Part shown: positions 1 to 14,590 of the stretch, one piece after another
Layout of the letters: each line of letters begins with the position of its first letter
Numbering within the stretch: position 1 is the first letter of the stretch
Source of the DNA: a virus
Lineage: Duplodnaviria > Heunggongvirae > Uroviricota > Caudoviricetes
Length of the DNA: 14,590 nucleotides
Virus record (IMG/VR): IMGVR_UViG_2563366895_000002
Span: 1 to 14,590 of that record
Strand: one strand, 5' to 3'
Position numbers and translations under genes: made by a program
The notes under the pieces: model-generated
Database searches by the model: none
What the model saw: only the letters and a program-made list of their open reading frames with translations
Told to the model about the DNA's origin: nothing

Positions 1-1164
1 TTACGCCTTCTTTATATCCTCCATAATTCCAGAGTGGGACATATTTGGGACATTATCACCAAAAATGTCGTCTATTTTCCTCGCATGCTCTGTCAAATGA
101 TTAGGCGCAAGGTGAGCATACCTACGAACCATTTCTATGGACTCCCATCCGCCCATTTCCTGAAGCACTGATAATGGGACGCCTGACTGAATCAGCCAGC
201 TTGCCCAGGTGTGTCTGAGGTCATGGAAACGGAAATCTTCAATTCCTGCACGACGACAAGCTGATAGCCATGATGTCTTGCTGTCGATGCGCATCTTCCT
301 GACCGCAGGCGTTGATGTTCCATCTGCTCGCTTAGCCGCCTTGGTATGTACAAACACCCATTTGTGATGCTTGCCTATTTGATCACGCAACACTTTACAG
401 GCGGTATCGTTCAGCGCCACACCAATGGCGCGGTTTGATTTGCTCTCTTCTGGATTCACCCAGGCAACTCGTCGCTGCATGTCGATTTGTTGCCATTCCA
501 GATTTATGATGTTCGACTTTCTCAGACCAGTTGCCAGCGCAAACTTGACGACAGATTTCAGTGGTTCGGGGCACTCATCAATAAGGCGTTTTGCTTCCTC
601 CTTTTCCAGCCATCTGACTCGCTTGTTTCTGACCGCTGGTATCTTGATGACAGGCGCTTTTTCCAGCCACTTCCAGTCGCGTTCTGCAGCACGGAGAATG
701 GCCTTTATCATGGCAAGATGCTTTGCCTTTGTCTGAGTTGATACTGGCTTTGGTTCATAAACAGGCGGTTCTTTACCTTTCCTGATGGCGGCCTGAACTT
801 TCTGTTTCCATATTTCTTTCGTCTTTCTGTTATGCATTCTGCTTACAGCAGAGTAAATCTTTGCCTCCGAGATATCTTTAAGCCTTATACCCTCAAAATG
901 TTCAAGCCAGAACTCAATCCGGCTTTTATCTGAATCGAGAGATTTTTTATCAGCTTTTTCCTCAAGCCATCTTAGGCAGGCCTCTTCAAAAGTGACATCA
1001 GGTAAATCCCCTAGCTTTTCTACTCGCCAGAGTTCTGCTTTTCGCTTGTCGTGCAACTCCTGAGCTTGCCGCTTGTCCTTTGTGCCAAGAGATTCCTTAA
1101 TTCGTTTCCCGCCCGGGAGCGAATACGAGGCATACCATATTTCATTTCTGCGGAAGAGTGACAT
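1..1164 (-). CDS. intD: Phage tyrosine integrase (DLP12/P22-type), complete 387 aa
   Basis: Full-length ORF on the minus strand; stop codon at bases 1-3. C-terminal catalytic region shows the tyrosine-recombinase motifs ([10 protein letters not shown] ... VRRYAHL). Recognised from memory as the DLP12 integrase; the 3' end faces the window edge as expected for an int gene next to attL/tRNA. Confidence 0.9.
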
Positions 1165-1296: not shown

Positions 1297-1470
1297 TGTA
1301 AAAGCCGCGAGGACAACGCTGTCGCAGTGTTGGCGGAACTGCTGACGCGTGCTTATCCTTGTCCGCCGCTGACACCACGTATACCAGCCGCTGCGGGCCA
1401 CCCGGAGCACGCGGCACATTGCTTTGATGCTGAACTCAGCCTGATGTTTTTCAATAAAGACATACTTCAT
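1297..1470 (-). pseudogene. insF: IS3 OrfB (InsF) N-terminal fragment, truncated after ~58 codons
   Basis: [58 protein letters not shown] matches the InsF N-terminus, then diverges and hits a stop; the DDE catalytic core is absent. Confidence 0.75.
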
Positions 1471-1766
1471 TTCAGGCGCTTCGCGAAGTATGTCGCGGCC
1501 TTTTGGAGGATAGCCAGCTCTTCATCCCGTTCTGCCAGCTGGCGTTTGAGACGTGCAATCTCGGTAGACATCTCCAGTTCACGTTCAGAAGACGTCTGCT
1601 GATTTTGCTGTTTACTGCGCCAGTTGTAGAGCTGTGATTCATACAGGCTGAGTTCACGGGCTGCGGCAGTAACACCGATGCGTTCAGCAAGCTTCAGGGC
1701 TTCACTGCGAAATTCAGGCGAATGCTGTTTACGGGGTTTTTTACTGGTTGATACTGTTTTTGTCAT
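1467..1766 (-). CDS. insE: IS3 OrfA transposase subunit (InsE), 99 aa
   Basis: Translation [40 protein letters not shown]... matches IS3 OrfA; ATG at 1766 (the track's 1775 start is an upstream GTG). Confidence 0.85.
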
Positions 1767-1831
1767 GTGAGTCACCTCTGACTGAGAGTTTACTCACTTA
1801 GCCGCGTGTCCACTATTGCTGGGTAAGATCA

Positions 1832-1994
1832 GCGAACGGTGTATTACCGGTTCGCTACCAGAGAAGAACGGGAAGGAAAGGTGAGCACGAATCTGATTTT
1901 TAAGGAGTGTCGCCAGAGTGCCGCGATGAAACGCGTATTGAGGGTATATAAAAGGAACATCAATGGGTACACAATGATGAAACAGGTGAGTTGA
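1832..1994 (+). pseudogene. renD: C-terminal remnant of Ren-like protein (renD'), separated from its 5' part by the IS3 insertion
   Basis: Frame starting at 1839 translates VYYRFATREEREGKVSTNLIFKECRQSAAMKRVL..., resembling the lambda Ren C-terminus from memory; it begins immediately at the IS3 end (1831) and stops at 1992-1994. Confidence 0.55.
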
Positions 1995-2044
1995 TTTCAA
2001 ACTGTAGTACAATTCTCTCCAGTTTGAACAGGAAAGAATATGCT

Positions 2045-2377
2045 ATGAACCCTTATATTTATCTTGGTGGTGCAATACTTGCAGAGGTCATTGGTACAAC
2101 CTTAATGAAGTTTTCAGAAGGTTTTACACGGTTATGGCCATCTGTTGGTACAATTATTTGTTATTGTGCATCATTCTGGTTATTAGCTCAGACGCTGGCT
2201 TATATTCCTACAGGGATTGCTTATGCTATCTGGTCAGGAGTCGGTATTGTCCTGATTAGCTTACTGTCATGGGGATTTTTCGGCCAACGGCTGGACCTGC
2301 CAGCCATTATAGGCATGATGTTGATTTGTGCCGGTGTGTTGGTTATTAATTTATTGTCACGAAGCACACCACATTAA
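2045..2377 (+). CDS. emrE: Small multidrug resistance (SMR) efflux transporter EmrE, 110 aa
   Basis: Translation MNPYIYLGGAILAEVIGTTLMKFSEGFTRLWPSVGTIICYCASFWLLAQTLAYIPTGIAYAIWSGVGIVLISLLSWGFFGQRLDLPAIIGMMLICAGVL.INLLSRSTPH matches EmrE from memory, including the conserved membrane-embedded Glu in the first helix (AILAEVIGT). ATG at 2045; the track's 1991 start is an upstream TTG. Confidence 0.95.
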   Translation: MNPYIYLGGAILAEVIGTTLMKFSEGFTRLWPSVGTIICYCASFWLLAQTLAYIPTGIAYAIWSGVGIVLISLLSWGFFGQRLDLPAIIGMMLICAGVLVINLLSRSTPH

Positions 2378-2408
2378 AAATAATTTGTTTCTAAACGACT
2401 AAAATATG

Positions 2409-2446
2409 GAGGCTCTTATATTTATATGAGCCTCGTTTTATGCTTT
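2409..2446 (+). terminator. Putative intrinsic terminator downstream of emrE
   Basis: GAGGCTC (2409-2415) pairs with GAGCCTC (2428-2434) around an AT-rich loop, followed by GTTTTATGCTTTTTG. Confidence 0.5.
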
Positions 2447-2633
2447 TTGTTAATGTCTTTATTTTTTTATGTATTCTTTTGTGCTTTCAAGATTATGGCG
2501 TAAGAAAATTGCAATACGATTATTGTTGTATATTCAAGATAATGTGACCTTAATTGTCTTTTTAAATAAAAATTAAACAAAAATTATATCTCACCACTAA
2601 GGTTTATAAAAGCATACGTTAGCAGGTGTCACC

Positions 2634-4160
2634 ATGAAAAAAGCCATAGCATATATGCGATTTTCATCACCAGGTCAGATGTCTGGCGACTCATTAAACC
2701 GACAGAGAAGACTTATTGCTGAATGGTTAAAGGTAAATAGTGATTATTATCTTGATACCATAACATATGAAGATTTAGGATTAAGTGCATTCAAAGGAAA
2801 GCATGCACAATCAGGAGCTTTTTCGGAATTTTTAGATGCTATAGAGCATGGTTATATATTGCCAGGAACTACATTGTTAGTTGAAAGTCTGGACAGACTT
2901 TCAAGAGAAAAAGTCGGTGAAGCGATTGAGCGTCTGAAATTGATTTTGAATCACGGTATTGATGTTATAACTCTTTGCGATAATACAGTCTATAATATTG
3001 ACTCTTTGAATGATCCATATTCATTAATAAAAGCCATACTTATAGCACAAAGGGCAAATGAAGAAAGCGAGATAAAGTCAAGTCGGGTTAAATTATCATG
3101 GAAGAAAAAACGGCAGGATGCACTGGAGTCAGGCACGATTATGACGGCGTCTTGTCCGAGATGGCTCTCCTTAGATGACAAAAGAACGGCTTTTGTTCCA
3201 GACCCCGACAGGGTGAAAACTATTGAGCTAATTTTTAAACTCAGGATGGAAAGGCGCTCATTGAATGCAATAGCCAAGTATTTAAATGATCATGCTGTAA
3301 AGAATTTCTCAGGAAAAGAAAGTGCATGGGGACCTTCTGTAATTGAAAAATTATTAGCGAATAAAGCTCTGATAGGTATATGCGTACCTTCATATCGTGC
3401 AAGAGGTAAAGGAATAAGTGAAATCGCTGGCTATTATCCCAGAGTCATATCAGATGATTTGTTTTACGCTGTGCAGGAAATTCGGTTGGCACCTTTTGGT
3501 ATTAGCAATAGTAGCAAAAACCCTATGTTGATAAATCTACTTCGAACAGTTATGAAGTGCGAGGCTTGTGGTAATACCATGATTGTTCATGCGGTATCTG
3601 GAAGTTTGCATGGCTATTATGTTTGTCCGATGAGAAGACTGCATCGATGTGACAGGCCATCAATAAAGAGAGATTTGGTTGATTATAATATCATTAATGA
3701 GTTGCTTTTTAATTGTAGTAAAATCCAACCAGTTGAAAACAAGAAAGATGCTAATGAAACTTTAGAGTTGAAAATTATTGAGCTCCAGATGAAAATTAAT
3801 AATTTAATTGCTGCATTATCTGTTGCGCCTGAAGTTACCGCTATAGCAGAAAAAATCAGAGTATTAGATAAGGAATTACGAAGGGCTTCTGTATCATTAA
3901 AAACTTTGAAGAGTAAAGCGGTGAGCTCACTTGGTGATTTTCATGCTATTGACTTAACCAGTAAAAATGGGCGAGAGCTATGTCGTACACTTGCCTATAA
4001 AACATTCGAAAAAATCATAATCAATACAGATAATAAAACCTGTGATATCTATTTTATGAATGGCATTGTTTTTAAACACTATCCTTTAATGAAAACAATA
4101 TCCGCCCAGCAGGCGATAAGTACTCTCAAATATATGGTTGATGGTGAGGTTTATTTTTGA
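2634..4160 (+). CDS. ybcK: Large serine recombinase (resolvase/invertase-type N-terminal domain), YbcK-like, 508 aa
   Basis: N-terminal YMRFSSPGQ motif with the presumptive catalytic Ser; a Cys-rich segment (CEACGN...CPMRRLHRC) typical of large serine recombinases. Matches DLP12 YbcK by length and sequence from memory. ATG at 2634 with AGGTG 6 nt upstream. Gene is visibly AT-rich. Confidence 0.85.
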   Translation: MKKAIAYMRFSSPGQMSGDSLNRQRRLIAEWLKVNSDYYLDTITYEDLGLSAFKGKHAQSGAFSEFLDAIEHGYILPGTTLLVESLDRLSREKVGEAIERLKLILNHGIDVITLCDNTVYNIDSLNDPYSLIKAILIAQRANEESEIKSSRVKLSWKKKRQDALESGTIMTASCPRWLSLDDKRTAFVPDPDRVKTIELIFKLRMERRSLNAIAKYLNDHAVKNFSGKESAWGPSVIEKLLANKALIGICVPSYRARGKGISEIAGYYPRVISDDLFYAVQEIRLAPFGISNSSKNPMLINLLRTVMKCEACGNTMIVHAVSGSLHGYYVCPMRRLHRCDRPSIKRDLVDYNIINELLFNCSKIQPVENKKDANETLELKIIELQMKINNLIAALSVAPEVTAIAEKIRVLDKELRRASVSLKTLKSKAVSSLGDFHAIDLTSKNGRELCRTLAYKTFEKIIINTDNKTCDIYFMNGIVFKHYPLMKTISAQQAISTLKYMVDGEVYF

Positions 4161-4271
4161 GTAATAATCACTTTTTCAACCGTGCTATAGTAAGAAAGTT
4201 AGGTAAGTACAATAAAATTATCTATCCTGAACGAAGCGTCCTGAGCTATGGTTTTACTATAGGGACTGCCA

Positions 4272-4589
4272 ATGGATGCTGGCGTTCTCGTTCTAGCAGT
4301 TCAACAATCCCCAATCACAAAACAATTCACTGATAACGAACTTTGCACACTCGCCTGGTTATGGCGAGCAGGGAATGTGATGTTAATTGCCTACCAGAAC
4401 GTTACTCATCTTCTTCAGGATGCGGAGCATGGTGAAGCTGGTCACTTCACTTCCATCGAGCAAGAATATCCCCAGATACTCAACAGAGCGCGAGCAATCC
4501 TCGTCCGAGAAACGGCACATGTAAAACTTCAGCCGTGGCAGGATGATAAGTGGAGTCGAGTATTGCCGTATTTGCGTCAAATCTGTTAG
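4272..4589 (+). CDS. Hypothetical protein, 105 aa, no family recognised
   Basis: ATG-initiated ORF with GC content near the host average, flanked by AT-rich DNA. No motif I can assign and no convincing Shine-Dalgarno seen; may be a gene remnant. Confidence 0.35.
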   Translation: MDAGVLVLAVQQSPITKQFTDNELCTLAWLWRAGNVMLIAYQNVTHLLQDAEHGEAGHFTSIEQEYPQILNRARAILVRETAHVKLQPWQDDKWSRVLPYLRQIC

Positions 4590-4686
4590 GAGTATAGCCG
4601 CCAGCCATGAGTGTTGTATTAAAACAAGGATGTCTATATATGGGATAGCGAGAGTATGAATATCAGTTATTTTGAGAGTTAACTGA

Positions 4687-4710
4687 TTGTGAAATTAGTT
4701 TTTTTCACAA
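4687..4710. promoter_or_regulatory. Inverted repeat TTGTGAAA-N8-TTTCACAA upstream of the 309-aa ORF; candidate operator
   Basis: Perfect 8-bp arms at 4687-4694 and 4703-4710 in an AT-rich intergenic region about 85 bp upstream of the ATG at 4794. Confidence 0.25.
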
Positions 4711-4793
4711 ACGAGTGGGGTTACTATGATGAGTGTTCTAATGCATAGGGAACACCTAATTTTTTCAATGAATTCAAATTGATAGGATCAAAA

Positions 4794-5723
4794 ATGGCAC
4801 AACAGAGAACTACCTCCCTCAGATCCATACCTTTAGACTTAGATGTTAAGCAAGAGGCTGTCATTAACGGTATAGAAATGGGGGTACTCGATAACGGAAT
4901 TCCGTACCTTACTCAGAATGGGTTGGCAAATGTTTGTGGTGTTCAGCGTTTGCGAATCAAGGAAATTACCGATGAGTGGGCTCAATCCGTTGAGAACGGT
5001 ATTTTCAAAAAAGGAAGAATGACTTTTATTGGTACATATCTTCTTAATGAAGGTTTTACAGATGAAAAACTTTATATACCAATAATTCGAAATGGTGTTG
5101 AGTACCATGCTTATCCAGATGTTGTATGCATGGCTATACTTGAATACTATGCCTTTGAAGCAAAACAAGCAGAAAGTGAGACTGCAATTAGATCTTACAG
5201 AGAGCTTGCTAAAAAAGGCCTCAAGACATTTATATACGAGGCGCTAAAATATCAACCGGAGGACCCGTGGAGGCATTACCATGACAGAGTATCTTTATTA
5301 AAAGATAAGGGAACCATACCTGATGGGTATTTCATTATATTTAATGAAATTGCAGGTATGATGGTAGATCTCATCAATGCTGGATTAGCGATTAATCAGC
5401 ATACCGTACCTGATGGCAGTGTTGGTTCTTGCTGGGCGCGTCACTGGAAAGCAAAGGGGTTAGCAACAGAATTTGGAGAAAGAGTAGACTGTGAGCATTA
5501 TTACCCTGAAGATTTTCTTCAGGCAAGTTCCAATCCTCAGATCATTAATGCCTATCCTGATTCTGCATTGTCAGAGTTTCGTAGATGGTTTAAGCATGAA
5601 TATTTAACCACAAAGTTCCCACCGTATATTCTTAAAAAATCAAACGTGCTTCCTGGTGGTACAGAAGATGCTAATCGTCTGATAGAAGCTTTCAAAAAAT
5701 CAGAGCTAGAAAATAAACCATAA
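4794..5723 (+). CDS. Hypothetical protein, 309 aa, unknown function; candidate prophage cargo or defence protein
   Basis: ATG at 4794 preceded by AGGA at 4784-4787 (the track's 4779 start is an upstream TTG). Long clean ORF, visibly AT-rich, no transmembrane or signal sequence evident. N-terminal segment (GIEMGVLDNGIPYLTQNGLANVCGVQRLRIKEITDEW) is loosely reminiscent of KilA-N/Bro-N DNA-binding domains; this is unverified. Confidence 0.6.
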   Translation: MAQQRTTSLRSIPLDLDVKQEAVINGIEMGVLDNGIPYLTQNGLANVCGVQRLRIKEITDEWAQSVENGIFKKGRMTFIGTYLLNEGFTDEKLYIPIIRNGVEYHAYPDVVCMAILEYYAFEAKQAESETAIRSYRELAKKGLKTFIYEALKYQPEDPWRHYHDRVSLLKDKGTIPDGYFIIFNEIAGMMVDLINAGLAINQHTVPDGSVGSCWARHWKAKGLATEFGERVDCEHYYPEDFLQASSNPQIINAYPDSALSEFRRWFKHEYLTTKFPPYILKKSNVLPGGTEDANRLIEAFKKSELENKP

Positions 5724-5821
5724 TTGTTTTTTGGCTTTTGATTTTACATAATCATTTTGCCATAATCATGTCATCGGAGCCTGAACAACTCCGGTGACTT
5801 CTGCGCTAAACGGGGACGTTT

Positions 5822-5923
5822 ATGCGCACATACAATCCAAACTCTCTTCTCCCTTCACAGATGCAGAGATGCACCTGCGATTTTTTGCATCCAGCGTTTG
5901 ACCTCTGCGGAGGTGAAGCGTGA
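5822..5923 (+). CDS. ylcH: Small protein YlcH-like, 33 aa
   Basis: [36 protein letters not shown] whose stop overlaps the ybcN GTG start (GTGA); position and size match DLP12 ylcH from memory. Confidence 0.45.
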
Positions 5924-6375
5924 ATCTCCCACAAGATGGCATCAAATTACATCGCGGTAACTTCACCGCTATCGGTCGGCAGATCCAGCCTTATCTGGAG
6001 GAGGGCAAATGCTTTCGCATGGTGCTTAAACCGTGGCGTGAGAAACGCAGTCTTTCCCAGAATGCACTCAGCCACATGTGGTACAGCGAAATCAGTGAAT
6101 ACCTCATCAACAGGGGTAAAACGTTCGCCACTCCAGCTTGGGTAAAAGATGCTCTCAAACACACATATCTCGGTTATGAAACCAAAGACCTGGTTGATGT
6201 CGTAACCGGTGATATCACCACTATCCAGTCGTTACGCCATACCTCCGATCTTGATACCGGAGAGATGTATGTCTTCCTGTGTAAGGTTGAAGCCTGGGCG
6301 GTGAATATTGGCTGCCACCTGACTATTCCGCAGAGCTGCGAGTTCCAGCTGCTCCGTGACAAGCAGGAGGCGTAA
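5920..6375 (+). CDS. ybcN: YbcN, NinB/Orf-like DNA-binding protein, 151 aa
   Basis: GTG start at 5920 with GGAGG upstream; translation matches DLP12 YbcN from memory. Confidence 0.85.
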
Positions 6376-6545
6376 TGGCTACACCGCTTATTCGTGTCAT
6401 GAACGGACACATCTACAGAGTATCAAATCGTCGTAAGCGTAAGCCTGAGCCGAAGCCATCCGAAATACCAACACTGCTCGGATATACCGCTAGCCTGGTT
6501 GATAAAAAATGGTTGCGACTGGCAGCAAGGAGGAATCATGGCTGA
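6375..6545 (+). CDS. ninE: NinE-like protein, 56 aa
   Basis: ATG overlaps the ybcN stop (TAATG); translation [56 protein letters not shown]. Below the track's length cutoff, found by reading the sequence. Confidence 0.75.
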   Translation: MATPLIRVMNGHIYRVSNRRKRKPEPKPSEIPTLLGYTASLVDKKWLRLAARRNHG

Positions 6546-6828
6546 TTTGAGAAAAGCAGCGCGTGGTCGGGAATGCCAGGTAAGAATCCCTGGCGTATGT
6601 AATGGCAATTCTGAAACGTCTGTACTGGCACATATCCGGCTGGCTGGATTGTGCGGTACCGGTATCAAACCGCCAGACCTGATTGCCACCATTGCATGTT
6701 CTGCCTGCCACGACGAAATCGACCGCCGCACACATTTTGTCGATGCTGCATATGCAAAAGAATGCGCGCTGGAAGGTATGGCGAGAACACAGGTTATTTG
6801 GCTGAAAGAGGGGGTTATTAAGGCGTGA
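6538..6828 (+). CDS. ybcO: YbcO, Cys/His-rich putative metal-binding nuclease-like protein, 96 aa
   Basis: ATG at 6538 overlapping the ninE 3' end; translation [24 protein letters not shown]...CSACHDEID matches YbcO from memory (the track's 6499 start is an upstream alternative). Confidence 0.8.
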
Positions 6829-7187
6829 ATACCTACAGCATCACATTACCCTGGCCTCCGAGCAATAATCGCTATTACCGCCATAATCGCGGGCGCACGC
6901 ACATCAGCGCAGAAGGGCAGGCATACCGCGATAACGTCACCCGAATCATTAAAAACGCAATGCTGGATATCGGCCTGGCTATGCCAGTGAAAATCCGTAT
7001 TGAGTGCCACATGCCGGATCGCCGTCGCCGTGACCTGGATAATCTGCAAAAAGCCGCTTTTGACGCACTCACCAAAGCAGGTTTCTGGCTGGATGATGCT
7101 CAGGTCGTTGATTACCGCGTTGTGAAGATGCCTGTTACCAAAGGTGGGAGGCTGGAACTGACCATCACCGAAATGGGGAATGAATGA
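6825..7187 (+). CDS. rusA: RusA Holliday junction resolvase, 120 aa
   Basis: GTG at 6825 overlapping the ybcO stop (GTGA); translation [36 protein letters not shown]... matches RusA from memory. Confidence 0.9.
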
Positions 7188-7324
7188 TGTTTGAGTTTTA
7201 TATGGCAGAACTTCTTCGCCACCGCTGGGGGCATCTGCGCTTATATCGTTTCCCCGGTTCTGTTTTGACCGATTACCGAATACTGAAGAATTACGCCAAA
7301 ACCCTGACAGGAGCAGGAGTATGA
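7184..7324 (+). CDS. ylcG: YlcG-like small protein, 46 aa
   Basis: ATG overlapping the rusA stop; translation [46 protein letters not shown]. Confidence 0.6.
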
Positions 7325-7409
7325 AGTCAGAGATAACAATCAACTAATACTGTTTTGTTGATTTTTGCTTGTAATTGGCGTTCTGGTCTGATTTTTGTGG
7401 AGTAAGTTG

Positions 7410-7793
7410 ATGCGTGATATTCAGATGGTTCTTGAGCGTTGGGGAGCGTGGGCGGCTAATAATCATGAAGATGTGACCTGGTCGTCCATTGCCGCCGGTT
7501 TTAAGGGATTAATTACTTCAAAAGTAAAATCTCGCCCGCAATGTTGTGACGATGACGCGATGATTATTTGCGGGTGCATGGCCCGTCTGAAAAAGAACAA
7601 CAGCGATTTGCACGATTTATTAGTAGATTATTATGTAGTCGGTATGACATTCATGTCACTGGCAGGTAAGCATTGCTGCTCTGATGGTTATATCGGGAAA
7701 AGGTTACAGAAGGCTGAGGGCATAATTGAAGGGATGTTAATGGCATTAGATATCCGGTTAGAGATGGATATCGTTGTTAATAACTCTAATTAA
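7410..7793 (+). CDS. quuD: Late-gene antiterminator Q homolog (QuuD), 127 aa
   Basis: ATG at 7410 (the track's 7395 start is an upstream TTG); translation [24 protein letters not shown]... with the Cys cluster [12 protein letters not shown]; sits immediately upstream of the hairpin cluster and lysis genes. Confidence 0.85.
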
Positions 7794-7810
7794 TATGCCA
7801 ATTGTTTACT

Positions 7811-7844
7811 AAAAATTATTAAAAATGGGGCGTTGAGACGCCCC
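7811..7844 (-). terminator. GC-rich hairpin GGGGCG-TTGAGA-CGCCCC with U-tract on the minus strand
   Basis: Stem 7827-7832 / 7839-7844; the + strand upstream is AAAAATTATTAAAAAT, which reads as a T-tract after the hairpin on the minus strand. Could terminate nmpC transcription or be part of the late promoter region; strand assignment is uncertain. Confidence 0.4.
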
Positions 7845-7883
7845 CAAAAATAAAGGGTAATATATAACAGAAGGTTTATATAG

Positions 7884-7972
7884 TTAGAAGCAAGGTTGTG
7901 CTTCTAAAGGAAGTGGCTTGAGGGAGCCACTTATATGTTGGGGAGGCAACGCCTCCCGCAACATATCTTTTT
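7884..7972 (+). terminator. Three consecutive hairpins downstream of quuD, the last followed by CTTTTT (tR'-like intrinsic terminator)
   Basis: Hairpins at 7884-7907 (TTAGAAGCA/TGCTTCTAA), 7911-7932 (AAGTGGCT/AGCCACTT) and 7933-7966 (ATATGTTGGGGAGGC/GCCTCCCGCAACATAT), then T-run 7967-7972. Position between Q and the lysis genes fits a lambdoid late leader/terminator. Confidence 0.5.
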
Positions 7973-7982
7973 CGTAATCAGA

Positions 7983-9080
7983 TTAGAACTGGTAAACCAG
8001 ACCTACAGCAACGATGTCATCAGTGCTTACACCGAGTGCTTTAGTGAAGTCATTTTTGTCAAGCAGGTTGATTTTGTAATCAACGAAAGTAGACATATTT
8101 TTGTTGAAGTAATAGGTTGCACCTACATCAACATATTTGACTAAGTCCTGATCGCCCCATACTCCAAGATCTTTACCTTTAGATTGCAGGTAAGCAACGG
8201 ACGGACGCAGACCGAAATCGAACTGATATTGTGCAACAGCTTCGAAGTTTTGGGCTTTATTAGCAACGAAGTGATCAGCAAATACAGTCATATTCTGGGT
8301 TTCAGAATAGGTAGTGGCCAGGTAAATGTTGTTAGCGTCATATTTCAGACCTGCGGCCCAAACTTCTGCATTTTTACCGGAAGCAAATACTTCAGGAAGA
8401 ACTTTCCCTGCATTAACTTGAGTGTCGGTACGATCAGATTTCGCATAAGTTGCACCGATACCGAATCCTTCGTATTCATAGGTAGCAGAGAAACCGAAGC
8501 CATCACCGTTACCTTCAGTGTAGTTATCGAAATCGCTACGATCGTTTTTGCCTTGGTACTGAGCAGCAAAGTTCAGACCATCAACCAGACCAAAGAAGTC
8601 GTTGTTACGATAGGTTGCAACACCAGTGGTGCGACCAGTCATGAACACATCTGTTTGGGTCCAGGTATCGCCACCGAATTCTGGCAGAACGTCAGTCCAC
8701 GCACCGATGTCGTATGCTACACCGTAGTTACGGCCGTAATCGATTGAGCCGTAGTCACCGAATTTCAGGCCTGCAAATGCAAGACGGGTTTTGTCTTTGG
8801 AGGAACCTTGAGATTCAGCGCGGTTGCCTTTGAATTCATATTCCCACTGACCGAAACCAGTCAGTTGATCGTTGATTTGGGTTTCACCTTTGAAGCCAAG
8901 ACGGGCATAAGTAGTATCACCATCATCTGCATCATTAGAGGAGAAGTAGTGCTTGGCATTAACTTTCCCGTACAGATCCAGCTTGTTACTGTCTTTATTA
9001 TAAATTTCAGCTGCCTGAGCAGACATCGCCATCAGTACTGATGCAGCTACAGCAGAAATTGCCACTGTTAATTTTTTCAT
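7983..9080 (-). CDS. nmpC: Outer membrane porin NmpC (OmpC/OmpD family), intact 365 aa with signal peptide
   Basis: Translation begins [29 protein letters not shown] and ends with the porin C-terminal ...VAVGLVYQF; full length with no interruption. Confidence 0.9.
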
Positions 9081-9668
9081 CGTGAGCCCTTTTTTTTGAA
9101 CTATTATTAAAAAATGATGTCACTGCGCGATAAATATTCATCTAATCAATGTGATTATTTCAAGATGTAAGTTTTAGTTTCTCATTTAATTTGTGAAGTA
9201 GATCTCTATTTTTATCTGAACTTTTTCTATCGAAACCTATTTATGGCTCTTATTTGAACAAAAATAAACCTATTAGCTAATTTATATTAATGGTTGTTAT
9301 TTATGGAGGTTCTATAATTCGGCAGTTTAATTTAAATCAACTAAAAATAACGTCTGAAATTATTTATTGGTTATTTGTTGAGGTTTTCTTATGTATTTGT
9401 GGTGGTGTTTTGAACACTCGGTAGCATTCTCATAAATATCATTCAGTGGTTTACGTACGTAAAAAATTGGTTATGCTGTTAAGAGTGGTTACTTCGTCAC
9501 ACAGCTTAAACCCGCCGTCGAGCTGGTTTTTCCATTTTTTGAGTCTCGATATTAGCTGATAACTCAATACCTGAGTTATTCACTGACTCCGAGTCTGTTA
9601 CGTTTCTGCTTTTTTGCGATACGTTGTATTCCCTCAATTTACACCCGCTTTGTCTGCGAGGTGGGGTT

Positions 9669-9884
9669 ATGAAATCCATGGATAAGTTAACAACGGGTGT
9701 CGCCTATGGCACCTCAGCAGGTAGTGCCGGTTACTGGTTTTTACAGCTGCTCGATAAAGTCACGCCCTCACAGTGGGCAGCAATAGGTGTGCTGGGTAGC
9801 CTGGTATTTGGCCTGCTGACGTACCTGACAAACCTTTATTTCAAGATTAAAGAAGATAAGCGCAAGGCTGCGAGAGGTGAATAA
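9669..9884 (+). CDS. essD: Pinholin (phage 21 S-type), 71 aa, with MKSM dual-start motif
   Basis: Translation [71 protein letters not shown]; ATG at 9669 (the track's 9624 start is an upstream alternative); stop overlaps the rrrD start (TAATG). Confidence 0.8.
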
Positions 9885-10381
9885 TGCCTCCATCATTACG
9901 AAAAGCCGTTGCTGCTGCTATTGGTGGCGGAGCAATTGCTATAGCATCAGTGTTAATTACTGGCCCAAGTGGTAACGATGGTCTGGAAGGTGTCAGCTAC
10001 ATACCATACAAAGATATTGTTGGTGTATGGACTGTATGTCACGGGCATACAGGAAAAGACATCATGCTCGGTAAAACGTATACCAAAGCAGAATGCAAAG
10101 CCCTCCTGAATAAAGACCTTGCCACGGTCGCCAGACAAATTAACCCGTACATCAAAGTCGATATACCGGAAACAATGCGCGGCGCTCTTTACTCATTCGT
10201 TTACAACGTGGGTGCTGGCAATTTCAGAACATCGACGCTTCTTCGCAAAATAAACCAGGGCGATATCAAAGGCGCATGTGATCAGCTACGTCGCTGGACA
10301 TATGCTGGCGGTAAGCAATGGAAAGGTCTCATGACTCGTCGTGAGATTGAGCGTGAAATCTGTTTGTGGGGTCAGCAATGA
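9884..10381 (+). CDS. rrrD: SAR endolysin (lysozyme), 165 aa
   Basis: N-terminal Gly/Ala-rich signal-anchor-release segment ([20 protein letters not shown]) followed by a lysozyme domain; matches RrrD from memory. Confidence 0.9.
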
Positions 10382-10839
10382 ACAGAGTAACCGCGATTAT
10401 CTCCGCTCTGGTTATCTGCATCATCGTCGGCCTGTCATGGGCTGTTAATCATTACCGTGATAACGCCATTACCTACAAAGCCCAGCGCGACAAAAATGCC
10501 AGAGAACTGAAGCTGGCGAACGCGGCAATTACTGACATGCAGATGCGTCAGCGTGATGTTGCTGCGCTCGATGCAAAATACACGAAGGAGTTAGCTGATG
10601 CGAAAGCTGAAAATGATGCTCTGCGTGATGATGTTGCCGCTGGTCGTCGTCGGTTGCACATCAAAGCAGTCTGTCAGTCAGTGCGTGAAGCCACCACCGC
10701 CTCCGGCGTGGATAATGCAGCCTCCCCCCGACTGGCAGACACCGCTGAACGGGATTATTTCACCCTCAGAGAGAGGCTGATCACTATGCAAAAACAACTG
10801 GAAGGAGCCCAGAAGTATATTAATGAGCAGTGCAGATAG
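10378..10839 (+). CDS. rzpD: Rz-like spanin (inner-membrane subunit), 153 aa
   Basis: ATG at 10378 overlapping the rrrD stop; N-terminal transmembrane helix and coiled-coil-like Ala/Asp/Arg-rich region. Confidence 0.85.
10598..10780 (+). CDS. rzoD: Rz1-like outer-membrane lipoprotein spanin subunit, 60 aa, embedded in rzpD in another frame
   Basis: ATG at 10598 with GGAG upstream; lipobox LVVVGC; proline-rich (PPPPPAW...PPPDW); lies entirely within rzpD. Confidence 0.8.
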
Positions 10840-10870
10840 AGCTGCCCATATCGATGGGCAACTCATGCAA

Positions 10871-11164
10871 TTATTGTGAGCAATACACACGCGCTTCCAG
10901 CGGAGTATAAATGCCTAAAGTAATAAAACCGAGCAATCCATTTACGAATGTTTGCTGGGTTTCTGTTTTAACAACATTTTCTGCGCCGCCACAAATTTTG
11001 GCTGCATCAACAGTTTTCTCCTGTCCAATTCCCGAAACGAAGAAGTGATGGGTGATGGTTTCCTTTGGTGTTACTGCTGTCGGTTTGTTTCCAACAGTAA
11101 ACGTCTGTTGAGCACATCCTGTAATAAGCATTGCCAGAGCGGCAGAAAACAACATTTTTTTCAT
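10871..11164 (-). CDS. borD: Bor lipoprotein homolog (serum-resistance-associated), 97 aa
   Basis: Translation MKKMLFSAALAMLITGC... with lipobox LITGC; ATG at 11164 (the track's 11212 start is an upstream alternative). Confidence 0.85.
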   Translation of the reverse strand: MKKMLFSAALAMLITGCAQQTFTVGNKPTAVTPKETITHHFFVSGIGQEKTVDAAKICGGAENVVKTETQQTFVNGLLGFITLGIYTPLEARVYCSQ

Positions 11165-11523
11165 CTTATTATCCTGCATTGTTAAAAACGGCAGAATCCT
11201 ATGTGACAACAATTAAACGATAGTTAAATGGATTGATGAAAATTAAAACTATATAGGTGGATGCTCAGCCTATTGGAGGAGGGGGGCACTCAGAATCCTG
11301 TGGAATGAAATAAACCGCTCTTTCTGTCCATTACCCTTTTAGCTGCGCTGTATCGTCGCCGTATTCCCGCATTAACCATGACCGTAGCCCGACGGGGAAT
11401 TCCTTCTGCGTGAGTGTGCGGGAATAATCAAAAACGATGCACACCGGGTTTTACTGTGCTGACAGACGCAGGGTTACCCTCATAGTCGCTTTTCCGGTGC
11501 GATGGTGGAAGAAACCGGGATGT

Positions 11524-11718
11524 TTATTCATCATCACTTTGGATTGATGTATATGCTCTCTTTTCTGACGTTAGTCTCCGACGGCAGGCTTCAATGACCC
11601 AGGCTGAGAAATTCCCAGACCCTTTTTGCTCAAGAGCGATGTTAATTTGTTCAATCATTTGGTTAGGAAAGCGGATGTTGCGGGTTGTTGTTCTGCGGGT
11701 TCTGTTCTTAGTTGACAT
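11524..11718 (-). CDS. ylcI: Small ribbon-helix-helix-like protein (YlcI-like), 64 aa
   Basis: ATG at 11718; Arg-rich N-terminus followed by a predicted strand-helix-helix pattern (RNIRFPNQMIEQINIALEQKGSGNFSAWVIEACRRRL). Confidence 0.55.
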   Translation of the reverse strand: MSTKNRTRRTTTRNIRFPNQMIEQINIALEQKGSGNFSAWVIEACRRRLTSEKRAYTSIQSDDE

Positions 11719-11879
11719 GAGGTTGCCCCGTATTCAGTGTTGCTGATTTGTATTGTCTGAAGTTGTTTTTACGTTAAGTTGATGCAGATCAATTAATACG
11801 ATACCTGCGTCATAATTGATTATTTGACGTGGTTTGATGGCGTAGATGCACGTTGTGATATGTAGATGATAATTATTAT

Positions 11880-12106
11880 CATTTTTCGGGTCCTTTCCGG
11901 CGATCCGACAGGTTACGGGGCGGCGACCTCGCGGGTTTTCGCTATTTATGAAAATTTTCCGGTTTAAGGCGTTTCCGTTCTTCTTCGTCATAACTTAATG
12001 TTTTTATTTAAAATACCCTCTGAAAAGAAAGGAAACGACAGGTGCTGAAAGCGAGCTTTTTGGCCTCTGTCGTTTCCTTTCTCTGTTTTTGTCCGTGGAA
12101 TGAACA
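11880..12106 (+). other. Lambda-type cos site (cosQ, cosN 12-nt cohesive end at 11918-11929, cosB with Nu1 R-sites)
   Basis: Sequence ...CGGGTCCTTTCCGGCGATCCGACAGGTTACG/GGGCGGCGACCTCGCGGGTTTTCGCTATTTATGAAAATTTTCCGGTTTAAGGCGTTTCCGTTCTTCTTCG... is nearly identical to the lambda cos region as I remember it, continuing into the Nu1 start codon at 12107. Confidence 0.8.
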
Positions 12107-13327
12107 ATGGAAGTCAACAAAAAGCAGCTGGCTGATATTTTCGGTGCGAGTATCCGTACCATTCAGAACTGGCAGGAGCAGGGAATGCCCGTTCTGCGAG
12201 GCGGTGGCAAGGGTAATGAGGTGCTTTATGATTCTGCCGCCGTCATAAAATGGTATGCCGAAACCATGCCACAGGCGAGTTCTGTTGTTTCAATTACGTT
12301 GATTGGTGGCGCTGGATTTAACGTGGGGTCACCTCAACAGGCAGGTATATCTGAACTTGTTTTACGTGCAGGTAATGGTAATCCGAAGGGGATTACTGGT
12401 GCTTTATGGCAGCGCACATCGACAGGGTTTACAAATTTTGCCTGGGTCAATACATCTGGTGATACTTACGATATTTACGTTGCAATCGGAAATTATGCGA
12501 CTGGTGTAAATATTCAATGGGATTATACCAGTAATGCCAGCGTGACGATTCATACGTCACCAGCATATTCTGCTAATAAGCCGGAAGGGTTAACGGACGG
12601 TACAGTTTATTCACTCTATACGCCATCAGAGCAGTTTTATCCGCCTGGCGCACCAATCCCGTGGCCATCAGATACCGTTCCGTCTGGCTATGCCCTGATG
12701 CAGGGGCAGACTTTTGACAAATCTGCATACCCGAAACTTGCAGCCGCTTATCCGTCAGGCGTGATCCCTGATATGCGTGGCTGGACGATTAAGGGCAAAC
12801 CTGCCAGTGGTCGGGCCGTATTGTCTCAGGAACAGGACGGCATTAAATCGCATACCCACAGCGCCAGCGCATCCAGTACGGATTTGGGGACGAAAACCAC
12901 ATCGTCGTTTGATTACGGCACTAAATCCACGAATAACACTGGTGCGCATACCCATAGTTTAAGTGGCAGCACGAATGCAGCTGGTAATCACAGCCATAGA
13001 GATGGCCGTCGATTTAACCCCAGTGTTTTTAAAGATACTTATCAATATGGTTATACAAGCTCAGGTCAAAATACCTGGGGTGTACAAGGCTCAGTAGGTA
13101 TGTCTACGGGGTGGTTAGCGAATACCAGTACAGATGGTAATCATAGCCATTCACTGTCCGGCACAGCAGCATCTGCAGGTGCACACGCGCATACTGTCGG
13201 TATTGGTGCTCATACGCACTCCGTTGCGATTGGTTCACATGGACACACCATCACCGTTAACGCTGCTGGTAACGCGGAAAACACCGTCAAAAACATCGCA
13301 TTTAACTATATTGTGAGGCTTGCATAA
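12107..13327 (+). CDS. Chimeric ORF: terminase small subunit Nu1 N-terminus (aa 1-~52, winged-helix DNA-binding part) fused in frame to a side tail fibre C-terminal region (~354 aa) with HxH repeats
   Basis: First 52 residues [52 protein letters not shown] match lambda Nu1; after about 12264 the sequence switches to tail-fibre-like sequence ([48 protein letters not shown]...) with six HxH motifs (GAHTHS, GNHSHR, GNHSHS, GAHAHT, GAHTHS, GSHGHT). Confidence 0.8.
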
Positions 13328-13902
13328 TGGCATTCAGAATGAGTGAACAACCACGGACCATAAAAATTTATAATCTGCTGGCCGGAACTAATGAATTTAT
13401 TGGTGAAGGTGACGCATATATTCCGCCTCATACAGGTCTGCCAGCAAACAGTACCGATATTGCACCACCAGATATTCCTGCTGGCTTTGTGGCTGTTTTC
13501 AACAGTGATAAGGCATCGTGGCATCTCGTTGAAGACCATCGGGGTAAAACGGTTTATGACGTAGCGTCAGGGGACGCGTTATTTATTTCTGAACTCGGTC
13601 CGTTACCGGAAAATGTTACCTGGTTATCGCCGGAAGGGGAGTTTCAGAAGTGGAACGGCACAGCCTGGGTGAAAGATGCAGAAGCAGAAAAACTGTTCCG
13701 GATCCGAGAGGCGGAAGAAACAAAAAACAGCCTGATGCAGGTAGCCAGTGAGCATATTGCGCCACTTCAGGATGCTGTAGATCTGGAAATCGCAACGGAG
13801 GAAGAAACCTCATTGCTGGAAGCCTGGAAAAAGTATCGGGTGTTGCTGAACCGTGTTGATACGTCAACTGCACAGGATATTGAATGGCCAGCACTGCCGT
13901 AG
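13327..13902 (+). CDS. tfaR: Tail fibre assembly protein (Tfa; TfaR/TfaQ-like), 191 aa
   Basis: ATG overlaps the stop of the upstream fibre ORF (TAATG); translation [54 protein letters not shown]... matches Rac/Qin-type Tfa from memory. Confidence 0.9.
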
Positions 13903-13999: not shown

Positions 14000-14590
14000 T
14001 TATATGTCAGGTGTCTGAAGTTTTGCTTTGGCTCTTAAAATGGTTTGCCGCGAGGTTTTGAATTCCCGGGCAATGGCACTTATACTTACACCTGACTTAA
14101 TTCGTTCGAATACCACCTGTTTCTGTTCTTCATTTAACACAGGTGGTCGACCAAAACGTTTCCCTGCGCCGCGGGCTCTTACTATCCCGGAATGAGTGCG
14201 TTCAAGTAAAAGGTCTCGTTCAAATTCAGCGACTGCTGAAATTACGTGCATCATCATTTTTCCTGTTGGACTGGTCAGGTCAATGCCCCCCAATGCTAAG
14301 CAATGCACTCTGATACCTGTTTCGGTCAGTTGTTCCACTGTTTTCCTGATATCCATTGCATTACAACCAAGGCGATCCAGTTTTGTCACAATCAATTGAT
14401 CACCACATTTCAGGCGAGCAAGCAACCGGTTAAAACCAGGACGCTCACTGGTTGCTGCTGAGCCGCTAATGTGTTCTTCGATTATTTGCTGAGGTTTGAT
14501 TTTAAAACCTGCACTTTCGATTTCCCTGCGTTGATTTTCGATGGTCTGATCCAGCGTTGATATCCGACAGTAAGCAAAAATTCGAGACAT
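14000..14590 (-). CDS. pinR: Serine DNA invertase of the Pin/Gin/Hin/Cin family, complete 196 aa
   Basis: Start codon at the window edge (14588-14590); N-terminal catalytic motif [10 protein letters not shown] with the active-site Ser, and a C-terminal HTH ([22 protein letters not shown]). Closest to PinR/PinQ from memory. Confidence 0.9.

Follow-up and report, generated by a model that had tools for sequence, protein, structure and literature searches.

In phage P22, the immI module is laid out as mnt / arc–ant. The locus described here is an open reading frame (ORF) of 105 amino acids at 4272–4589 on the plus strand of the window, by which we mean the whole 14,590-nt stretch of DNA that was analysed. 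It resembles the P22 module in that the ORF holds a complete P22_AR_C domain and that full-length relatives in the same slot of other prophages sit behind an Arc-like gene and a divergent Mnt-like gene. It differs in that the ORF has no N-terminal domain and the window has neither arc nor mnt; in that the closest full-length relatives of the ORF carry Bro-N, not P22_AR_N; and in that the module lies in the nin region, whereas that of P22 lies beside the late genes. The setting is like that of the K-12 prophage DLP12: the two share their backbone and the ybcK block, both are defective, and the gene names used for the window were transferred by RefSeq. The corresponding slot of E. coli K-12 presumably carries ybcL–ybcM, not an Ant remnant with BstA.

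The gene downstream of the ORF encodes BstA. Homologues of BstA from Salmonella, Klebsiella and E. coli defend when expressed alone, and self-immunity of BTP1 maps to a 63-bp DNA element that spans the start of bstA (PMC8585504). The slot that holds this gene is like the defence hotspots of P2 and P4 (PMC9122126) in that conserved flanks surround alternative, often AT-rich cargos, among which BstA and a HEPN protein with a match to a PADLOC candidate represent known defence genes. It differs from those hotspots in phage family and position, in that its left flank is an apparently decaying fragment and not an essential gene, and in that most cargos of this ren–ninB slot are uncharacterised. A literature search returned nothing specific on the 105-amino-acid ORF or on a ren–ninB hotspot. 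We consider it quite likely that the ORF is the truncated 3′ remnant of an antirepressor gene, without a selected function, and that it serves as a homology arm.

The reading frame and its prophage

Positions 1822–12263 of the window match the chromosome of E. coli GE3 (NZ_CP012376) at 99.96% identity, and RefSeq annotates the stretch there as a DLP12-like lambdoid prophage. Strain 2016C-3878 likewise has the identical locus. Gene order on the left is a ren remnant (128 nt, 1822–1949), emrE, ylcJ, ybcK, the ORF (WP_001567061.1) and a 309-amino-acid hypothetical protein, followed on the right by ylcH, ybcN/ninB, ninE, ybcO, rusA, ylcG, quuD, a porin and lysis genes. The window begins with intD (387 amino acids, 1–1164, minus strand) and a fragment of an IS transposase HTH (102 amino acids, 1467–1775, minus strand), and its DLP12-like features comprise intD, the IS remnant, the ren remnant, an nmpC-like porin, the lysis genes and a Nu1–tail fibre fusion. 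This fusion is a 406-amino-acid ORF (12107–13327, plus strand) that joins the first 53 residues of Nu1, the terminase small subunit, to tail-collar/tail-fibre repeat domains; it implies that the whole head and tail region has been deleted and is a further sign of a defective prophage. The immunity, recombination and replication regions of GE3 are missing from the window.

To the right of 12263 the window diverges from GE3. There, an Rfam match to IS009 (RF02111; 13670–13868, plus strand; 226.7 bits against a gathering score of 117) lies inside a tail-fibre assembly gene (13327–13902), which is followed by an invertase-type resolvase gene on the minus strand (14000–14590). Further left, ybcK (2634–4160, plus strand) encodes a large serine recombinase of 508 amino acids, as identified by the Pfam domains Resolvase, Recombinase and Zn_ribbon_recom and by RefSeq, and is the last gene of an emrE–ylcJ–ybcK block (about 1950–4272, GC content 36–41%) that behaves as one unit. 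This recombinase sits in the middle of the prophage, which already has a tyrosine integrase.

The original prediction described an ATG-initiated ORF of 105 codons that differs from both neighbours in base composition, and both points stood. GC content is 47.5% in the ORF, 36.2% in ybcK and 39.0% in the 309-amino-acid gene; it is 36.0% in the upstream spacer (111 nt, 4161–4271, plus strand), which travels with ybcK and has no similarity to the long-gene loci described below, and 33.8% in the downstream spacer (204 nt). The nin genes to the right of the ORF have a GC content of about 48%. By a binomial estimate, 318 bases at 47.5% depart from a background of 37% by about 3.9 standard deviations, and the contrast is therefore not due to chance.

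We next looked at expression signals. An SD-like AGGGA at 4261–4265 lies 6 nt upstream of the ATG, and its predicted pairing with the 16S tail (−5.6 kcal/mol) compares with −4.6 for ybcK, −4.3 for emrE and −4.0 for bstA. The nin genes pair far more strongly (about −10 to −12 kcal/mol), so the reported lack of a convincing ribosome-binding site is borne out relative to the nin genes but not relative to ybcK, emrE and bstA. An in-frame TAG (4260–4262) stands three codons ahead of the ATG. The sole terminator-like site near the ORF is a weak plus-strand hairpin at 4267–4284, with five pairs, an 8-nt loop and a T-rich run behind it; it overlaps the start codon and could limit translation initiation. 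A promoter scan of the ORF region returned no more sites than shuffled sequence did, and an Rfam search of the ORF and its surroundings detected no RNA family. Neither an overlapping 58-amino-acid ORF that starts with TTG (4157–4333) nor an antisense ORF of 65 amino acids (4383–4580) had a family match or other support.

The statement that the ORF has no recognisable domain did not survive profile searches. Residues 15–85 matched positions 3–73 of the 73-position Pfam profile P22_AR_C (PF10548) at 52 bits (cut-off 22.4; E = 7.7e-14), and residues 1–104 matched positions 1–104 of the 107 in PHROG 7640, a family of short phage proteins of unknown function, which is an end-to-end match (E = 1.7e-69). 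RefSeq labels the identical protein, WP_001567061.1, ‘P22AR C-terminal domain-containing protein’. Searches of NCBIfam and PADLOC gave no match to the ORF. The architecture is not that of an Ant-type protein, as P22_AR_C stands alone. An AlphaFold2 model built on a 16-sequence alignment was of low confidence (mean pLDDT 48, pTM 0.29), and when PDB sequences were queried with a full-length relative, no meaningful match resulted (the top one, at E = 0.097, was to an elongation factor).

Protein-level relatives placed the ORF at the end of longer proteins. A word-indexed search gave 28 close matches with little information on architecture, and we therefore rely on an exhaustive search of 1.84 billion representatives. 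Relatives with a single match were nearly all 186–307 amino acids long and matched in their C-terminal part; one of them, a 300-amino-acid protein with P22_AR_N and P22_AR_C, was 60% identical to the ORF in its C-terminal region, and two-domain representatives spanned 39–64% identity. Only one close cluster of 107 amino acids was present among the 1.84 billion representatives. Short proteins with P22_AR_C only were few elsewhere, at 33–48% identity (for example, 91 and 99 amino acids). Dozens of proteins of 600–3,400 amino acids (P0035, P0036, P0046 and similar) that matched residues 12–50 of the ORF (4272–4421) repeatedly, 3–11 times each, were set aside as most likely a spurious resemblance of motifs, magnified by the repeats; the three that we inspected were PKD-repeat proteins.

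Full-length genes in the same slot and the junction

To place the ORF among its nucleotide relatives, we surveyed 5,426 complete E. coli genomes together with phage records and inspected 80 IMG/VR loci. Matches fell into classes: the complete segment followed by BstA; the upstream spacer and ORF followed by other genes; the ORF body alone, at 82–88% identity, inside longer genes; the spacer with a truncated ORF; and the proximal spacer alone. The third class answers the proposed check for alignment to the interior of a longer gene: the ORF body corresponds to the 3′ end of longer genes. In related prophages, the slot between ren and ylcH/ninB is occupied by a gene of 201–249 amino acids with Bro-N and P22_AR_C, such as WP_001415151.1 (202 amino acids) or XSB41294.1 (‘Rha protein’ of PhiR5_1, 249 amino acids), and the ORF aligns to the C-terminal approximately 96 residues of these proteins, in keeping with the earlier idea of a fragment of a larger gene. 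The same-slot genes are 82–88% identical to the window over 4273/4285–4577/4587 and have the same downstream cargo classes as the ORF. A conserved core, codons 10–99 (VQQSPITKQF...SRVLP; 4299–4568, plus strand), holds P22_AR_C and is 82–93% identical to full-length genes at the nucleotide level. Compared with those genes, the window copy lacks the Bro-N half, starts at an ATG made by the junction, opens with nine unrelated residues and ends in a shortened tail.

The GC content of the full-length genes is 47–48% throughout and matches that of the ORF. The ‘GC island’ is therefore native backbone between two AT-rich acquisitions, and its description as host-like was misleading, as 47–48% is the GC content of the parent phage gene. 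For the same reason, the proposal that the fragment had been captured into the slot has the direction reversed: the ORF is what is left of the backbone between the emrE–ylcJ–ybcK block and the BstA cargo.

The neighbours of the full-length genes differ from those of the ORF. In PhiR5_1 and strain 99RCEF, the long gene is preceded by an Arc-like gene of 52 amino acids on the same strand and by a divergent Arc/Mnt-like gene of 100–105 amino acids; Arc- and Mnt-type genes also lie upstream of the full-length gene in the loci L006 and L013. Arc/Mnt regulators were absent from the window and the other short-type loci, and a tblastn search found no Bro-N-like coding sequence in the window or in other ybcK-linked loci (best E = 0.13). 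Two long-type loci, L003 and L004, have a second copy of about 140–170 bp of the pre-ylcH sequence upstream of the ant module (3134–3302 and 5067–5330 in L003; 3159–3296 and 5437–5718 in L004; both match window positions of about 5736–5905), and in L004 this second copy contains a shortened ylcH that is annotated as a partial gene. Direct repeats thus bracket the ant gene and its cargo in these loci, and they could loop out this module or may record its insertion.

Length followed linkage to ybcK without exception. Among 94 loci and window copies with a full core, all 50 ybcK-linked copies were short (48 of 105–109 amino acids and two nonsense alleles of 79 and 99 amino acids), and all 44 copies without this link were long (43 of 201–249 amino acids and one disrupted gene).

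The junction itself preserves a trace of the lost part. Homology to the long genes starts at 4273, the first base of the TGG (Trp) codon in ...RRWVLDILDRE, with which the Bro-N region ends. The short-type sequence across the junction is TGGATGCTGG-CGTTCTCGTTCTAGCAGTTCAACAA, and the long-type consensus is TGGGTGCTGGATATTCTCGATCGAGAAGTTCAACAA. The start codon at 4272–4274 consists of A4272 from the spacer and the TG of the old Trp codon, and 4273–4298 is an out-of-frame relic of the codons W-V-L-D-I-L-D-R-E. One base is missing in the short type between 4282 and 4283, and the ancestral frame terminates at a TAG (4294–4296). The new frame reads MDAGVLVLA, a junction leader of nine new codons (4272–4298, plus strand), and then continues with VQQSPITKQF. 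We found the junction to be identical in all four short-type alleles that were aligned, and because the ORFs of the same loci differ by up to 11%, this identity indicates a single origin.

In long-gene loci, homology to the window halts at 1949 and restarts at 4273 or 4285, and the emrE–ylcJ–ybcK block is absent. No relic of Bro-N, Arc or Mnt was found elsewhere in short-type loci; the block at about 1950–4272 therefore replaced the mnt–arc–ant 5′ region and did not split it. We also considered ybcK as a mobile element that had split ant, and rejected this, as no relic of the ant 5′ part, arc or mnt lies upstream of emrE.

On these comparisons, an origin of the ORF by truncation is almost certain. 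The opposite polarity, in which the short form is ancestral and a small independent gene was later fused to Bro-N by domain shuffling, would fit the coincidence of the homology boundary with the start of the ORF, as expected of a module boundary, and the domain swapping of Bro-network proteins (PMC10111431). It is contradicted, as far as the sequences tell, by the junction relic, whose 26 nt of homology to the end of Bro-N are read in a different frame, lack one base and run into a stop in the ancestral frame; moreover, proteins with both domains are widespread and ancient, whereas the short form makes up a single tight cluster linked to ybcK. We regard an ancestral short form as highly improbable. 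Homologues of the same size with a conserved start, which had been named as the finding that would mark an intact small gene, do exist in about 345 E. coli genomes, but their identical junction traces them to a single origin, and purifying selection is not seen in them, so they are not evidence for an intact gene.

We propose the following sequence of events. An ancestral Ant-type gene, with a Bro-N DNA-binding half and P22_AR_C, would have followed Arc- and Mnt-like regulators in the interval from ren to ylcH/ninB, as such genes do in many lambdoid phages. In a DLP12-type lineage, one recombination would then have swapped mnt, arc and the Bro-N half for the AT-rich emrE–ylcJ–ybcK block, with the break falling in the last codons ahead of the P22_AR_C domain. 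An ATG would have arisen across the junction and a 1-nt deletion would have brought the domain into frame, resulting in an ORF of 105–109 amino acids whose ribosome-binding site is weak.

Relaxed selection and repeated loss

To assess selection on the ORF, we compared the 270-nt core among 24 unique alleles, 12 of short and 12 of long type, and counted variants private to one class over 59.3 synonymous and 210.7 non-synonymous sites. Short-type private variants comprised 6 synonymous and 19 non-synonymous changes, one of them nonsense (omega of about 0.89), and long-type private variants comprised 31 synonymous and 13 non-synonymous changes (omega of about 0.12; Fisher P = 3.4e-4 for short versus long counts). 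The sample is small, the 24 alleles recombine, which makes their variants non-independent, and counting class-private variants polarises changes only roughly; an earlier count of allele-private variants in 11 sequences pointed in the same direction. Short-type variants thus do not have the omega well below 1 that marks purifying selection, and the window copy lacks the detectable constraint of the full-length genes. A mixture of purifying and diversifying selection can likewise bring omega close to 1.

Damaged copies of the ORF were found in several settings. In O104:H4 HUSEC2011 the ORF has an internal stop and is flagged by RefSeq as a pseudogene, and in NCTC9100 it has a premature stop. EDL933 retains only a 37-nt relic of the ORF; window positions 3900–4226 were matched, and the spacer is kept with ybcK. 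Several lambda-like phages belong to the alpha/beta-hydrolase variant, in which the ORF breaks off at about 4445, and the protein database contains frameshifted products of the ORF. The 3′ end of ybcK with the proximal spacer is present in 1,422 of the 5,426 complete E. coli genomes, and 345 of these 1,422 (24%) have the arrangement of spacer and ORF; about 76% have lost it. Long-type alleles number about 320 in complete genomes. All 43 ybcK-linked loci of IMG/VR have an intact ORF, as do most of the approximately 345 E. coli genomes with this arrangement.

From these patterns, the ORF appears to be drifting without selection, and we judge it probable that it has no function. Sequence comparison establishes its origin, the single junction, the relaxed selection and the repeated loss, and we infer that any product of the ORF lacks a selected function. 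Recency would explain in part why the frame has stayed open, and recombination with the intact ant genes that other lambdoid phages carry would re-import selected sequence along with adjacent cargo and so keep it open.

Several observations would also suit a functional stand-alone P22_AR_C protein, made by read-through of the early-right/ybcK transcript and acting through the protein-interaction half of an antirepressor, for example, as a decoy or dominant-negative factor against Ant-type antirepressors or repressors of other lambdoid phages. The frame is open and has an ATG with an SD-like AGGGA at least as strong as the motifs of its expressed neighbours, the Pfam domain is preserved in full, and the ORF forms its own PHROG and is retained in about 345 genomes. 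The in-frame start, which combines a junction ATG with a compensating 1-nt deletion, could reflect selection for expression, and distant short P22_AR_C-only proteins suggest that the domain may be able to work alone in a Bro network known for domain swapping (PMC10111431). We nevertheless think such a function unlikely, given the omega of about 0.9 against about 0.12 in full-length genes, the nonsense alleles, deletions and loss of the arrangement from about three-quarters of ybcK-bearing genomes, a C-terminal tail that differs with each cargo, and the descent of all copies from a single junction. In addition, many hosts of the ORF, the window included, are defective prophages without immunity and replication regions.

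The specific version, in which expressed P22_AR_C without a DNA-binding half is a decoy or dominant-negative factor against the Ant-type antirepressors of other lambdoid phages or their repressor targets, is in our view more doubtful still. If it were true, a cryptic prophage could interfere with induction of, or superinfection by, its relatives, and the near-neutral substitutions would represent diversifying selection and not decay. We favour the truncated remnant over these alternatives; the ORF is an ordinary gene remnant, already annotated in RefSeq, Pfam and PHROG, in a well-known cryptic prophage region.

BstA and the variable cargo slot

The cargo behind the ORF is a swappable unit of about 1,148 bp (4590–5736, plus strand) that consists of an AT-rich leader (4590–4793) and bstA (4794–5723, plus strand), a single-gene abortive-infection defence of 309 amino acids identified by PHROG 6287 (1.8e-136) and PADLOC BstA (3.6e-121). 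The longest ORF for bstA starts at a TTG at 4779 (314 amino acids) and lacks SD-like pairing (+0.4 kcal/mol), and the RefSeq start is the ATG at 4794 (309 amino acids, −4.0 kcal/mol). By analogy to BTP1, the predicted anti-BstA DNA element would lie at about 4765–4827. BstA cargo was present in 104 E. coli genomes, and the stretch 4161–4780 was whole in 108.

The original prediction had offered a second possibility, in which the ORF is a regulator or partner of the downstream gene; in its full form, the ORF would be a dedicated partner, regulator or immunity factor in a two-gene system with BstA. It lies immediately upstream of bstA on the same strand, and in complete E. coli genomes the bstA allele of the window is seen only behind the short ORF. 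This linkage is that of one nearly clonal module (99.6–100% identity). None of 29 IMG/VR loci with BstA at 39–92% identity had a P22_AR_C ORF within 2.5 kb; only the identical BstA allele adjoins one. The ORF also stands in front of at least four further classes of cargo (967, 823, 757 and 297 bp). BstA is sufficient alone, and in BTP1 self-immunity resides in a DNA element and not in a neighbouring protein (PMC8585504); the ORF itself has no PADLOC match. The partner hypothesis is largely refuted, and we give it very little credence.

The left edge of the slot is the variable tail of the ORF (4569–4589, plus strand; stop TAG at 4587–4589), which varies with the cargo. In the window, a 1-nt loss (CAGAAT to CAAAT, 4578–4582) gives ...RQIC* in place of the usual ...RQNLLQ*. 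Homology to other alleles stops at about 4577–4587 and restarts at 5736–5738 in every comparison locus. The right flank (5737–5919, plus strand) is the pre-ylcH sequence with most of ylcH (about 5822–5923), which runs into ybcN/ninB at 5920. Thus delimited, the slot spans 4588–5736 in the window, 4436–5402 in L002, 4312–5066 in L003, 4322–5436 in L004, 4262–5657 in L005, 4436–5257 in L007, 2825–3820 in L013 and 3307–4592 in L091.

This slot has at least eight alternative contents in lambdoid prophages, with cargos of about 297, 757, 823, 967, 996, 1135, 1148 (BstA), 1286 and 1397 bp. Besides BstA, we found a near-empty version of 297 bp, a HEPN protein (a weak match, PADLOC candidate PDC-M28A) with a 133-amino-acid partner, and an alpha/beta hydrolase (BD-FAE) on the minus strand. 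Slot proteins of 260, 169, 118, 210 and 240 amino acids had no match in Pfam or PADLOC and are candidate new anti-phage or moron genes.

Cargos move between the two forms of the left flank. Those of 297, 757 and 823 bp were found behind short and long genes alike, and over their 3′ halves (135 nt) three short alleles showed 0 differences from long alleles that carry the same cargo, whereas over their 5′ halves they differed from these long alleles by 8–10 nt. Crossovers have thus occurred inside the ORF, and on this evidence of allele mosaics its DNA is a left homology arm for cargo exchange. In practice, the role of the remnant would be that of DNA, as the left arm of a variable cargo slot that holds BstA here.

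The locus provides a worked example in which an odd GC island is residual native backbone squeezed by two AT-rich acquisitions, and in which hundreds of homologues of the same length can reflect one truncation event and not selection. The cargo slot beside the ORF is the more promising lead, and its contents could be screened as candidate anti-phage genes.
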